A program made the translations under genes and the position numbers. Shown piece after piece: positions 7,788 to 10,010 of a stretch of 45,838 nucleotides of DNA (the first letter of the stretch is position 1; every line of letters begins with the position of its first letter). Source of the stretch: a phage. The stretch is taken from the NCBI GenBank assembly GCA_014143165.1, contig GCA_014143165.1_4843.1; one strand, given 5' to 3'. The notes beneath the pieces are model-generated. The model saw only the letters and a program-made list of their open reading frames with translations, did no database searches and was not told where the DNA came from.

Positions 7788-7994
7788 ATGAGGTTAGCTA
7801 TGGACGTTGTTATTTTGTTGTTTTTTGTTGGCTTGGTGATATTTGCGTACCTTCTGCCATCTTTTGTGGCCCTGCAACGCAAGCACGTAAACACGACTGC
7901 AATCTGCGTACTGAATATTCTTGTCGGATGGAGCTTTATTGGATGGGTTGCGGCACTGGTTTGGGCATTGGTTAAAAGTGGCGACAAGAAATGA
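7788..7994 (+). CDS. superinfection-immunity-like small membrane protein
   Basis: Product ...LPSFVALQRKHVNTTAICVLNILVGWSFIGWVAALVWALVK matches the hydrophobic GW..IGW..AL.WAL pattern of Imm-type superinfection immunity proteins; own promoter; antisense to tail genes. Confidence 0.55.
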   Translation: MRLAMDVVILLFFVGLVIFAYLLPSFVALQRKHVNTTAICVLNILVGWSFIGWVAALVWALVKSGDKK

Positions 7995-8133
7995 ACGAGC
8001 AAACAAAAGCAGACCTGATTTTCTACACTGAACTGTATGTTGATGCAGGTTACGACTATGAAGAAGCTGAACGCATGGCGAAAGACTTACTCCGCGTGAT
8101 TGGTGTTATTTTTGATGAGGACAAGGTGATATG
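7991..8133 (+). CDS. hypothetical small protein (47 aa)
   Basis: ATG overlaps the upstream stop (ATGA); not in the supplied ORF track (below 60 aa). Confidence 0.3.
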
Positions 8134-8331
8134 AGCCAGTGGATTAAGTGTGGTGAGATGCTTCCTGGCGATGGGTATACGGATAAGGAGTTCCTGGTGT
8201 ATGAAATGTTGAATAACGCAGTTCAGCATGATTATTACATCGTTCCTGATGATGGTAGAAAGCCATTCTGGAATCACTATGGTAAGTACGTGACTCACTG
8301 GATGCCACTACCAGAGCCACCACAAGAATAA
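8131..8331 (+). CDS. DUF551-like phage protein
   Basis: C-terminal ...YVTHWMPLPEPPQE as in DUF551 proteins; last gene of the small plus-strand unit. Confidence 0.5.
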   Translation: MSQWIKCGEMLPGDGYTDKEFLVYEMLNNAVQHDYYIVPDDGRKPFWNHYGKYVTHWMPLPEPPQE

Positions 8332-8335
8332 AACA

Positions 8336-8362
8336 AAGCCCCTTTCGGGGCTTTTTCTTTAT
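8336..8362 (+). terminator. rho-independent terminator
   Basis: GCCCC-TTTC-GGGGC hairpin followed by TTTTTCTTT. Confidence 0.6.
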
Positions 8363-9078
8363 CAGGATACGGTGCAAGCCGTGCTCAGGATAACTTCAGG
8401 GTCAGTAGATGAATCAGTTACCGTAACGGTATACACGCCAGCAGTTGGGCTTGCCAGTGATGCGCCAGATTCGCCGCCAACAACCGCGCCATCTTTGCGC
8501 CATACATAAGTGTAAGGTGTAACGCCACCCTCAACAGCAACAGTTAACGGGCTGCCAGTGCTGCCAGTTGATTGCAGGTCGGTGGTGAATGCCAGAGGTT
8601 CAAGGCTTTCAATTGACACCGTATCGCCGTCGTAAGGCTTGAACTCAACGGAACCGGTGACAATATCGTTTGTTCCACCTTCCCATGACAACCCGGTGAT
8701 GTTGCAGTACGCGGTGGTGATGGTGCTGCCAGTGACTTGACGAACCCACAGAGACGGTTGCCTGCGCGCACTCATCTCAGTGGTGAACATCTGGATTAGT
8801 TTATGAATACCATACTCGTCTGATTTATCATTTTTTTTAATTTCAAAATCACCGCTGATAGTCATGTCCGCTGTTGTCACCAGAGTGGCGACGAAGCCGC
8901 TATTGGTATCAGCTTCACTTGATGTGGTATTAGGGCTGAAATCAACCCCGTTATTGGTGAGTGAGCCAAAATACTTCCAATCTTCCTGTGACGGTTCTGC
9001 ATCTGAGCACCCGTCAGCAAGGAAGATTCGCATCATTCTTCCCACCAGAATTCCGTTGTTATTTGCACAAATAGCCAT
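8362..9078 (-). CDS. major tail protein with C-terminal Ig-like domain
   Basis: 238 aa; C-terminal ...TVAVEGGVTPYTYVWRKDGAVVGG...GVYTVTVTD is Ig-like (Big_2-type); sits upstream of chaperone and tape measure. Confidence 0.65.
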   Translation of the reverse strand: MAICANNNGILVGRMMRIFLADGCSDAEPSQEDWKYFGSLTNNGVDFSPNTTSSEADTNSGFVATLVTTADMTISGDFEIKKNDKSDEYGIHKLIQMFTTEMSARRQPSLWVRQVTGSTITTAYCNITGLSWEGGTNDIVTGSVEFKPYDGDTVSIESLEPLAFTTDLQSTGSTGSPLTVAVEGGVTPYTYVWRKDGAVVGGESGASLASPTAGVYTVTVTDSSTDPEVILSTACTVS

Positions 9079-9129
9079 TTCGATCTCCGAATTGTGTTAG
9101 CTGCTAACGTGGTGATTATATCACAGGTG

Positions 9130-9158
9130 TTGACAGTGATTATTTTGTGGTGTAGATT
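9130..9158 (+). promoter_or_regulatory. sigma70-type promoter (TTGACA-17 bp-TAGATT)
   Basis: TTGACA 9130-9135, 17-bp spacer, TAGATT 9153-9158; same architecture as the 7736 promoter. Confidence 0.5.
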
Positions 9159-9165
9159 AAAGTCT

Positions 9166-9612
9166 ACTTAAGATATGAATTGATTTATGCGTGAGTTTTC
9201 AACTTTCTGAAAGGAAGGTGACCAAAATGAATGAAATCTCAATTTGAAGAGGTCAAAATAATTAGCGGTCGAGAGACGCCGGACGCGTAACCGGCACACA
9301 ACAGGTAAGAGCATTGGTGTACCAGAAGCCCGTGGGTTATGGCTAAGGAGTCCCAAGTGAGCGCATAAGTGCTCTTTCCGTTGTGGTGAATGCGCAGGCT
9401 GATGCGCGAAAGACATTGCAGCTATTGCGGAAAAGAGCTGTTCGGCGGGGCAATTAAACGCCCGTGAGAGTCTGAAATAACCGCAAGCCGGAGATCAGCA
9501 CCGGCCACCACAACACTTAATATCCAGCATTATCGCAATCATATGTAGGGGTATGTATGGGTTACGGGGCTGGATATTAAGAAAGCACGCTGGCAATGCT
9601 TAAACCAGTAAT
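9166..9612 (+). ncRNA. candidate structured non-coding RNA (about 450 nt, unknown class)
   Basis: Promoter-to-terminator interval with no plus-strand ORF over 25 codons and no RBS-ATG pair; perfect 13-bp inverted repeat CTTAATATCCAGC (9516-9528) / GCTGGATATTAAG (9569-9581) plus several short GC stems. Confidence 0.3.
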
Positions 9613-9641
9613 AAGGCCGCCAAGTGCGGCTTTATTTATTT
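9613..9641 (+). terminator. rho-independent terminator
   Basis: GCCGC-CAAGT-GCGGC hairpin followed by TTTATTTATTT. Confidence 0.55.
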
Positions 9642-10010
9642 AACAACCCGCAAAAGCAACTCATGCACAGGTCTTTTTTCTTCCGTCAGCATTGGCCTAC
9701 CGAGCGGAGCCTGCAACTGGATGTAGTTCACGCACAAATCAATCGGATGCGTCTTGATGTATTCGATAATCTCATTGGCTTTAGCGTCAACATCCGACAC
9801 GTTATACTGTCCATGTTTGCCGACAACGTACAGCGAGAAATAAAAGTCACCACCAAGTCCATCCATCACCTGCGTGCCGCCGTTGGATTGCAGGACAATA
9901 AATTGCTCGTTGCCATTTTCGGTGTCATTCCAGAACTGCAATTGCGAAGTCCAGCCATCATACAATCCAGCATCCTGAAGATATGCATCAACCAGCTCAA
10001 GCATATTCAT
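9636..10010 (-). CDS. putative tail completion / tail terminator protein
   Basis: 124-aa ORF between the gp10-like connector gene and the major tail gene; call by position. Confidence 0.35.
   Translation of the reverse strand: MNMLELVDAYLQDAGLYDGWTSQLQFWNDTENGNEQFIVLQSNGGTQVMDGLGGDFYFSLYVVGKHGQYNVSDVDAKANEIIEYIKTHPIDLCVNYIQLQAPLGRPMLTEEKRPVHELLLRVVK

Follow-up and report, generated by a model that had tools for sequence, protein, structure and literature searches.

The stretch of DNA analysed here, a phage contig of 45,838 nucleotides (nt) that we call the window (GenBank assembly GCA_014143165.1), belongs to a virulent IME207-like siphophage with 98.5% identity to the Salmonella/Klebsiella phage IME207 (Shuimuvirus) over the region of interest, an interval (9079-9635) flanked by two minus-strand genes. 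These are the gene for the tail terminator (9636-10010, minus strand; PF23842, E = 2.7e-40) and that for the major tail protein (8362-9078, minus strand; product name from the annotation of relatives), and the initial annotation of the window was right to place the interval within the tail gene block. It had proposed that 9130-9641 is a promoter-to-terminator cassette free of open reading frames (ORFs) and a candidate structured non-coding RNA. The cassette is an antisense insertion between the two tail genes, and comparison with related and unrelated genomes showed it to have the predicted make-up of a self-contained non-coding RNA operon (an 'RNA moron') of serial structured modules. The same comparison showed that its core, module B (9380-9514, plus strand; inverted repeat I3), belongs to a large predicted RNA family of proteobacterial phages and prophages in which a fixed scaffold encloses a hypervariable insert.

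The predicted sigma-70 promoter (9130-9158, plus strand) is present as first described, with TTGACA (9130-9135), 17 nt and TAGATT (9153-9158), and agrees with 10 of 12 consensus positions; we infer that transcription would start near 9165. Promoter-like matches are common by chance in the region (3 found, 4.6 expected from shuffles). The cassette promoter is kept in position and sequence in every relative with the RNA cassette, being carried by IME207, CECAV048, DS8, LPST49, ZCEC08, ST1UNAM and Bas80, and by the Klebsiella phage KP591P3 with a variant spacer. A minus-strand promoter-like site (9166-9139) overlaps it. At the other end, the rho-independent terminator that had been called was recovered as a predicted intrinsic terminator (9616-9641, plus strand), in which a GCCGC-CAAGU-GCGGC hairpin, GCCGCCAAGTGCGGC (9616-9630), is followed by the U-rich TTTATTTATTT (9631-9641); the plus-strand tail was read directly, the automated scan having returned the stem for the minus strand only, with the tail CTTATTACTG. 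This hairpin closes the cassette in all relatives compared, and the terminator as a whole overlaps with the convergent tail-terminator gene at its stop codon. As a predicted transcription unit the cassette therefore has hexamers with a spacer in the 16-18 nt range and a GC hairpin with a U tract, on the same strand.

The roughly 450 nt between these signals indeed hold no credible ORF. The longest, of 82 amino acids, lies on the minus strand (9168-9416) and matched neither Pfam nor PHROG, and the other three ORFs of the interval had no PHROG match. We regard it as extremely improbable that a small protein is encoded here or that the interval serves as a DNA element bound by protein (origin, operator or pac site), the latter being an alternative that the initial annotation had raised and that found no support. 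The 82-amino-acid ORF and the hypothetical proteins annotated here in some deposited genomes speak for such a reading, but the ORFs belong to no Pfam or PHROG family, relatives exchange whole segments and carry indels that would disrupt any reading frame in the interval, and substitutions follow RNA-pairing covariation. On the plus strand, 9160-9645 folded better than 100 of 100 dinucleotide shuffles (z = -2.7).

Module B is closed by a helix, P1, that pairs its two ends (9380-9388 with 9506-9514). Within P1 lie an AAU linker (9389-9391), hairpin 1 (9392-9407; GCGCA-GGCUGA-UGCGC), a 79-nt insert that we call the cargo (9408-9486) and hairpin 2 (9487-9505; GCCGG-AGAUCAGCA-CCGGC), which directly abuts the 3' strand of P1, all on the plus strand. 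We defined the family by a P1 of at least 6 base pairs (bp), AAU, two 5-bp hairpins on either side of an insert, the first with a loop of the GGCUGA type and the second with one of the AGAUCAGCA type, complementarity between these loops across 5 nt, and a P1 3' strand that begins directly behind hairpin 2; positions 9380-9514 of the window show every one of these features. Circularity was avoided by locating the hairpins by sequence alone in Python descriptor scans and taking the nine outer bases on each side blind. At least 169 distinct scaffolds with at least 83 different P1 5' strands were collected, and 123 distinct scaffolds, their cargo swapped for a placeholder, were aligned for covariation analysis. 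Among these 123 sequences, 94.4% of pairing cells were paired, compared to 81.3% in shuffles, and 17 of the 24 pairs showed changes on both sides. The covariation score of 0.349 was reached by none of 500 shuffles (0.108 ± 0.005) and dropped to 0.04-0.11 when partners were slid by 1-3 columns. All four helices covary, namely P1, both 5-bp hairpin stems and a kissing helix between the two loops. P1 has a core of 7 bp (columns 4-9 pair in 97-99% of sequences, column 3 in 86%), its outer two columns are often unpaired, and its length ranges from 6 to 23 bp among copies. The unpaired AAU, AGA and A nucleotides are invariant in the family.

The kiss is a 5-bp Watson-Crick pairing of the hairpin loops, GCUGA with UCAGC in the window. 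The first two scans had each fixed one of the loops, and the kiss was tested by two further scans with degenerate loop-1 patterns. Among the matches listed, 20 of the 21 loci with a GUCGA loop in hairpin 1 had UCGAC in hairpin 2 (L246 did not), and the 21 loci represent about ten P1 helices and several kinds of cargo. GCCGA with UCGGC and GUUGA with UCAAC formed further matched pairs, and mismatched cases were few. In all there are four versions of the kiss, GCUGA/UCAGC, GUCGA/UCGAC, GCCGA/UCGGC and GUUGA/UCAAC, associated with differing P1 helices and cargos, and the contact is supported by these three independent types of compensatory change.

The topology of module B is that of a transfer RNA (tRNA): a 7-bp closing helix takes the place of the acceptor stem, followed by the 3-nt AAU, a 5-bp hairpin at the position of the D-arm, the insert at that of the anticodon arm and a 5-bp hairpin at that of the T-arm. 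Hairpin 2, abutting the 3' strand of P1, gives a 12-bp stack (7 bp of core P1 plus 5 bp), and the elbow formed by the D-loop and T-loop is replaced by the 5-bp Watson-Crick kiss. In CECAV048 and ST1UNAM, the slot that module B occupies in the window keeps this P1 (GUUGUGG/CCACAAC), and within it a long insert is flanked by a canonical D-arm (GCUCAAUGGCGAGC) and T-arm (GCAGGUUCGAUUCCUGU); part of this version is annotated as a 58-nt 'tRNA-Ser'. NCCA follows the closing helix in 27 of 182 copies, against about 4% expected from base composition; CCA is enriched about twofold at offsets 7-10, and some copies end in ACCA. We conclude that module B resembles a tRNA but is no canonical tRNA.

The module is widespread. 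Using BLAST, we found an unannotated 150-bp piece that is 96-99% identical to 9366-9516 in phages with unrelated flanks, its carriers being lambdoid, P1-like, Stx2, T1-like and Klebsiella phages. It lies downstream of a cI-like repressor in the lambdoid phage mEp460 and right after tRNA-Asn and tRNA-Thr in the P1-like RCS47. The piece is likewise unannotated in Escherichia coli, where 851 of 5426 complete genomes have it, on the chromosome at 723 places and on plasmids at 237. Exact-word scans of IMG/VR returned at least 120 matches for hairpin 1 and at least 120 for hairpin 2, and a hairpin 1 20-mer gave at least 120 matches in bacterial contigs with one genome per species; the taxa among the matches listed for this 20-mer were Enterobacterales, Pseudomonas, Burkholderia, Xanthomonas, Dyella, Rhizobium, Methylobacterium, others and a few non-proteobacterial metagenome-assembled genomes. 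The scaffold of module B occurs in hundreds of contigs, from phages and prophages of alpha-, beta- and gamma-proteobacteria. The initial annotation had put its weight elsewhere, on a 13-bp inverted repeat and on GNRA-type loops, which exist but are peripheral and group-specific, and had not singled out 9380-9514.

Module B copies have a strand. Near 368 of them, all 74 neighbouring tRNA genes lie on the strand of the module, and since these make up 74 of the 88 tRNA genes in 3 Mb of loci, tRNA genes are strongly concentrated beside it. In co-directional gene blocks, 112 copies are sense and 40 antisense, and among paired cells G.U (51) exceeds A.C (23). On these three grounds, tRNA co-orientation, sense bias and G.U excess, the RNA strand is the plus strand of the window. 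The same figures bear on the possibility that the module is non-autonomous mobile DNA, akin to miniature inverted-repeat or palindrome-associated transposable elements (MITEs, PATEs) of the IS200/IS605 type, with the hairpins as signals in single-stranded DNA, the cargo as passenger and RNA structure as incidental. Much would fit: a GCTGAT core common to hairpin 1 and the reverse-complemented hairpin 2 makes the pair look like imperfect terminal inverted repeats, and subterminal hairpins stand at both ends of a variable segment, as in PATEs and MITEs; symmetric end recognition could also yield loop-loop covariation; identical modules occur in unrelated phages and plasmids; cargos are very diverse; and P1 varies from 6 to 23 bp, as though the element had been inserted into pre-existing hairpins. 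Mobile DNA does not, however, account for the co-orientation of 74 of 74 tRNA genes, the 112:40 sense bias, the excess of G.U over A.C, the covariation within each hairpin and P1, or the D-arm/T-arm version in the same slot, and no transposase is annotated beside the copies inspected, empty sites not having been searched for systematically. The strand biases, the covariation of hairpins and P1 and the D-arm/T-arm version therefore favour selection at the RNA level, and we consider the mobile-DNA reading decidedly improbable. The ORFs downstream of 296 module B copies comprise 148 distinct sequences with no common family besides a cluster of N antiterminators, and they yielded no reverse transcriptase, Cas, transposase or nuclease partner.

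The structured non-coding RNA first proposed for the interval is supported by these data, in that four core helices covary in more than 100 independent sequences and tRNA genes share the strand, together with the pairing states of a further module, D, described below. Comparative folding, a check suggested at the time, bears on the region favourably (0.349 against 0.108 for shuffles, as above): conservation and covariation are both present, and no homologs were found for its ORFs. The second suggested check, a search with covariance models, matched no known family: none of the 4227 models of Rfam 15, which include the Y RNA, ROOL, GOLLD, hammerhead, twister, pistol, hatchet and hepatitis delta virus (HDV) families, reached its gathering score anywhere in the window.

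As a joint explanation of these observations we lean, with limited confidence, towards an RNA operon whose tRNA-like scaffold is processed by the host and displays interchangeable cargos. The host tRNA-maturation machinery would probably recognize the 12-bp stack and the elbow and excise module B, with RNase P cutting at the 5' side of the closing helix and 3' trimming thereafter; we infer this recognition because the module has the shape of a tRNA and is co-transcribed with tRNA genes. Excision would serve as punctuation of the polycistronic transcript, setting modules apart from tRNAs and, in the lambdoid phages, parting nutL and the N gene; it would also free a compact, nuclease-resistant small RNA that presents its cargo. 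The cargo might then act as an effector that differs between phages, be it a ribozyme, a tRNA-like piece, an aptamer or a decoy. Our guess at an anti-defence or host-manipulation role comes from cargo diversity and the moron-like position only.

The genomic contexts of module B bear on the processing step. In locus L022 (8574-8760), in L055, L084, L103 and L125 and in about 15 other loci, copies stand 24-29 nt upstream of the start codons of lambdoid N antiterminators (PF25694, phrog_271), just downstream of the nutL boxB, and their P1 is lengthened into a long helix, P1 measuring 13-23 bp in some copies. The boxB of L022, GCGCUGACAAAGCGC, we take to be of the P22 type. HK633 has modules A and B placed after PR'/qut and before the holin gene. 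In KP591P3 and IME207, tRNA-Ser(gct), tRNA-Arg(tct) and sometimes tRNA-Met follow module B on its 3' side, and in P1-like phages tRNA-Asn and tRNA-Thr come before it. From the N leaders, the PR'/qut position and the tRNA clusters it follows that the modules sit in heavily transcribed leaders and tRNA clusters. Stand-alone copies are found between terminators, and in phage 24-32N the module array adjoins an annotated anti-CRISPR gene.

Module B might be nothing but a cis-acting mark for processing or stability, tRNA-like or in the form of a long hairpin, through which RNase P or RNase III would cleave polycistronic transcripts or their ends would be protected, the excised RNA having no role in trans; in N leaders it would then stand in for the RNase III site of lambda. 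The fixed distance of 24-29 nt before N start codons and downstream of nutL, a P1 lengthened to 13-23 bp in certain copies and the placement of modules between other modules and tRNA genes are what such a mark would predict. Against it, the window has no tRNA gene or ORF before its terminator and hence nothing downstream to process, stand-alone copies lie between terminators, and a cut site has no need of hypervariable structured cargos, so that we consider a purely cis-acting role unlikely.

Displayed cargos, as the favoured explanation has them, are numerous: at least 175 distinct cargos of 6-170 nt were collected, almost all different. That of the window is the commonest in phages of E. coli, Salmonella and Klebsiella and moves among unrelated phages together with its scaffold, as a unit that is 96-99% conserved; in one copy of this type (L037), a G-C pair of an inner hairpin has become A-U by compensatory change. 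It has no Rfam match. Read by eye, it may form a double pseudoknot (AGAC/GUCU, CAGCU/AGCUG and UUGCGG/CCGCAA) with an additional hairpin, CGGGG/CCCCG. Other cargos contain known folds. Locus L014 (3701-3779, minus strand) has as its module B cargo a larger conserved RNA with a complete type I hammerhead, CUACGC-CUGAUGA-GGCC AUAA GGCC-GAAA-CCCGCAAGGGU-U|GCGUAG, which scored 28 bits (E = 3.8e-5) with the HH9 model, below the gathering score of 52, and whose core was read directly. In Klebsiella phage UPM 2146, a hammerhead-bearing RNA lies downstream of module B (L006, about 2170-2230). A full tRNA is nested as cargo in L113 (7100-7178; 40 bits with the Rfam tRNA model, Ser-gct according to ARAGORN), and T-arm-like hairpins also occur among cargos. 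At the lower end, some cargos measure only 6-28 nt, for example 6 nt in L239. An HDV-like topology for the cargo was dropped because its strand order differs, and a guide RNA because the cargos have structure and measure 6-170 nt.

That module B or the cargo of the window is itself a new self-cleaving ribozyme or ligand-binding aptamer seems very unlikely. In its favour, module B joins the invariant unpaired AAU, AGA and A to a tertiary contact of pseudoknot type and variable peripheral domains, and these motifs are common near hammerheads in phages; yet no ribozyme or riboswitch model matched, the Rfam hammerhead models found no core in the window's cargo, and no conserved internal-loop candidate for an active site was identified.

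In another alternative the scaffold would be the active part, acting as a tRNA mimic that sequesters or inhibits a conserved tRNA-handling factor of the host or of a defence system (candidates being RNase P, RtcB/RtcR, anticodon nucleases and tRNA-modifying enzymes), and the insert would be a variable arm that is merely tolerated. A stretch of 20 nt in hairpin 1 is identical in phages of alpha-, beta- and gamma-proteobacterial hosts, scaffolds nearly devoid of cargo exist (the 6 nt of L239) and modules adjoin phage tRNA genes, which are described as counter-measures against tRNA-cleaving defences (10.1101/2023.03.15.532788). A tolerated insert is difficult to reconcile with the window's 79-nt cargo, which is 96-99% conserved along with the scaffold in unrelated phages and shows compensatory change, with functional folds (hammerhead, tRNA) among cargos, or with a median cargo length far above that needed by a neutral connector. 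We judge the probability of this alternative to be low.

Several observations weigh against the host-processed display scaffold that we favour. A tRNA gene stands near only 13% of module B copies; CCA is only modestly enriched, and the copy in the window lacks it. The likeness to tRNA is imperfect, with a linker of 3 nt instead of 2, a D-position stem of 5 bp and loops of 6 and 9 nt (9 at the T-position); ARAGORN found no tRNA or tmRNA gene in the window, and the Rfam tRNA model had no match in the window at its gathering score, nor at E <= 10 in 8900-9800. Recognition by RNase P would be an argument from shape alone. The 20-nt identity of hairpin 1 fits a sequence-specific partner better than a passive chassis, and cargos as short as 6-28 nt mean that the scaffold may have a function of its own. 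Finally, the fold of the window may be dynamic, because the GUUGUG that opens module B has two CACAAC partners. With these points in mind, we put forward only tentatively, as a possibility that may well prove wrong, the wider proposal that proteobacterial phages possess a natural RNA 'display chassis', a scaffold that mimics tRNA and has a Watson-Crick kiss as its elbow, and that this chassis hijacks the host's tRNA processing to express, in arrays shared with tRNA genes, a rapidly swapped repertoire of small structured RNAs such as ribozymes, tRNA pieces, or aptamers or decoys directed at host defence or other host factors.

The family is apparently undescribed. Below the gathering score, at E <= 10, the region gave chance-level Rfam matches only (Leu and Trp leaders, caused by the terminator); two module B instances with short cargo gave only a partial rydB hairpin, and fourteen related loci only tRNAs and STnc100. 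A literature search with exact scaffold and cargo strings, in DNA and RNA alphabets, and with keywords found no description of the motif. The nearest known systems are the tRNA-like domain of transfer-messenger RNA (tmRNA), YrlA-type mimics, GOLLD and ROOL, and the artificial tRNA scaffold, and module B is a member of none of them. Three other candidates were set aside: the Pas small RNAs, as the preprint on them (PMC13192938) deals with other prophage small RNAs; the M3 RNA of phi80 as a related RNase P substrate, as the phi80 record lists that RNA as its oop homologue; and integron attC sites, as P1 is not a conserved GTTRRRY core.

Like module B, tmRNA has an end-closed acceptor-type helix, a stacked T-arm, a D-arm analogue and a large domain at the position of the anticodon arm, and some module B copies end in ACCA. 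Unlike tmRNA, module B has no tag reading frame or G3.U70 and was called as tmRNA by neither ARAGORN nor Rfam; a Watson-Crick kiss forms its elbow in place of a contact between T-loop and D-loop, and its insert is hypervariable, whereas that of tmRNA is conserved. YrlA, mascRNA and viral 3' tRNA-like structures are non-tRNA RNAs that have the L-shape of tRNA and are handled by tRNA enzymes, and YrlA-type RNAs occur in phages too. YrlA is, however, circularly permuted relative to module B and binds Ro, the window has no Rsr/Ro context, and the Y RNA and tRNA-like-structure families of Rfam had no match in the window, or in the region at E <= 10. Ponchon and Dardel reportedly engineered, in 2007, a 'tRNA scaffold' for recombinant RNA expression in E. 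coli. There a structured RNA replaces the anticodon arm and the chassis is processed and protected in vivo, which is analogous to the mechanism proposed here; that scaffold is artificial and has a true tRNA body, whereas module B is natural, has kissing loops and would be processed as we propose.

In lambda, a plain long-hairpin RNase III site lies between nutL and the N start codon, and tRNA punctuation likewise places a structured or tRNA-shaped element between cistrons as a cleavage signal. The lambda site differs in having no conserved scaffold, and a role of module B in N leaders is suggested by position alone. GOLLD and ROOL are large structured RNAs of phages and prophages, often located beside tRNA genes (PMC5737381, PMC12286853). 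Module B differs from them in sequence and size, was matched by neither model, has hosts among Proteobacteria rather than Firmicutes or rumen organisms, and forms modular arrays with interchangeable cargos; a palindromic ACGCGU loop at 9283-9288 of the window hints at possible oligomerization. RydB (RF00118) has an 18-nt hairpin, GCCGGAGAUAAGCGCCGG, between complementary CCCC and GGGG that resembles hairpin 2 with P1, but it has no hairpin 1 or kissing partner, and hairpin 2 scored 13.7-18 bits with the rydB model against a gathering score of 50. In E. coli K-12 rydB (L412, 2714-2781), the 3' half is GCCGGAGAUAAGCGCCGG followed by AUGGGG, which pairs with the 5' CCCC; this gene may at most be a degenerate or decayed chromosomal relative of module B.

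If the display chassis exists as proposed, it would be the RNA counterpart of protein 'moron' or anti-defence islands and an abundant class of phage RNA genes overlooked by annotation, and about 16% of complete E. coli genomes would harbour one such RNA as an abundant gene without annotation. Its carriers would include P1-like plasmids, Stx phages, therapeutic-type T1/Jersey-like phages and prophages of Pseudomonas, Burkholderia, Xanthomonas and many other genera. It would add an RNA tertiary motif that is new and well supported, with a kissing loop standing in for the elbow of tRNA, and would give the tRNA-scaffold trick of RNA biotechnology a precedent in nature and the nutL-N leaders of some lambdoid phages a new component. 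It would also supply hundreds of cargos as candidate functional RNAs, ready for a screen for their targets (possibly defence systems), and would explain why many phage annotations show 'empty' intergenic stretches and spurious hypothetical ORFs.

Outside module B, the cassette begins with an AT-rich 5' leader (9165-9267, plus strand) that is common to the window and IME207 only, other relatives having one of two unrelated leaders. Within it (9215-9247), a Shine-Dalgarno-like GGAAGGTGA is followed six bases on by ATG AAT GAA ATC TCA ATT TGA, a mini-ORF of 6 codons (9227-9247, plus strand) that only IME207 shares; the site and the mini-ORF may be a chance occurrence. Next comes a pair of hairpins (9268-9295, plus strand), GUC-GAGA-GAC with a GNRA loop (9268-9277) and GCCGG-ACGCGUAA-CCGGC. 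The first is the one case that bears out the initial mention of GAAA-type loops, the other GC-rich hairpins having specific non-GNRA loops. The ACGCGUAA loop (9283-9290) is palindromic, with ACGCGU at 9283-9288 and ACGU in distant copies, and could drive RNA dimerization by loop-loop kissing. Hairpin pairs of this type, with loops ending in ..ACGUAA, are found at array ends in the distant loci L006, L010, L016 and L021. A possible partner for the ACGCGUAA loop in the leader, UUAUGCGU (9184-9191), is not conserved in CECAV048 or LPST49 and is not claimed.

Module A (9296-9385, plus strand; inverted repeat I5) is a long interrupted helix with a 52-nt variable insert. At its base ACACAAC(A) pairs with GUUGUG, and in its upper stem GGUAAGAGCA (9304-9313) pairs with UGCUCUUUCC (9370-9379). 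Homologous loci compared side by side gave the consensus ACAACAGGUAAGRGCA ... UGCYCUUWCCGUUGU around the insert, with 50 distinct arm pairs and 65 distinct inserts, and compensatory changes in the arms (AAGGGUA/UACCCUU, CUAUC/GAUAG and AAAUCUGG/CCAGUUU). GUUGUG (9380-9385) complements two copies of CACAAC, one at 9297-9302, which closes module A, and one at 9509-9514, which closes module B; the two closures exclude each other, and the alternative pairing may be a folding switch or an effect of the order of folding.

Module D (9516-9581, plus strand; inverted repeat I1) has a perfect 13-bp stem, an inner 8-bp hairpin and a GGGG loop and is specific to the window's phage group. Its arms (9516-9528 and 9569-9581, with 40 nt between them) are the 13-bp inverted repeat of the initial annotation, which we confirmed. 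In 27 distinct sequences from 32 loci, the window included, the variable positions of the stem are U-A, C-G or U.G only and never C.A, so that this is an RNA stem on the plus strand. A conserved spacer, GAAAGCACGCUGGCAAUGCUUAAACCAG (9582-9612, plus strand), follows, and in relatives tRNA genes (Ser-gct, Arg-tct, Met, Ile) come directly after it, in the same transcription unit and on the same strand as the RNA cassette. Between spacer and terminator, IME207 carries tRNA-Ser(gct), tRNA-Arg(tct) and a small ORF (L001, 4543-4712), and the window has none of these three genes at 9610-9616. As IME207 has the tRNA genes and the 98.5%-identical window does not, they are optional accessories of the cassette.

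In phage SB28 an anti-repressor gene fills the slot and the cassette promoter is absent. The promoter being kept in RNA-bearing relatives and replaced in SB28, the slot acts as a 'moron' position equipped with a promoter and a terminator of its own. Elsewhere, hypothetical-protein ORFs or a 58-nt 'tRNA-Ser' are annotated over RNA modules, as in Bas80 (L134, 643-1146), L002 and other deposited genomes, and are probably mis-annotations. The 48 nt upstream of the major tail gene (9079-9126) are 100% conserved, even where the slot content differs (SB28, KE12), and include two small palindromes, TTAGCTGCTAA and GTGATTATATCAC; they are probably the 5' untranslated region or a control region of this gene. 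A second plus-strand island (7788-8354) lies within the minus-strand tail block. It contains three small ORFs (7788-7994, 7991-8134 and 8131-8331), the first of which carries the annotation 'superinfection immunity protein' in CECAV048, and it closes with a perfect bidirectional terminator, AAAGCCCCTTTCGGGGCTTT (8335-8354).

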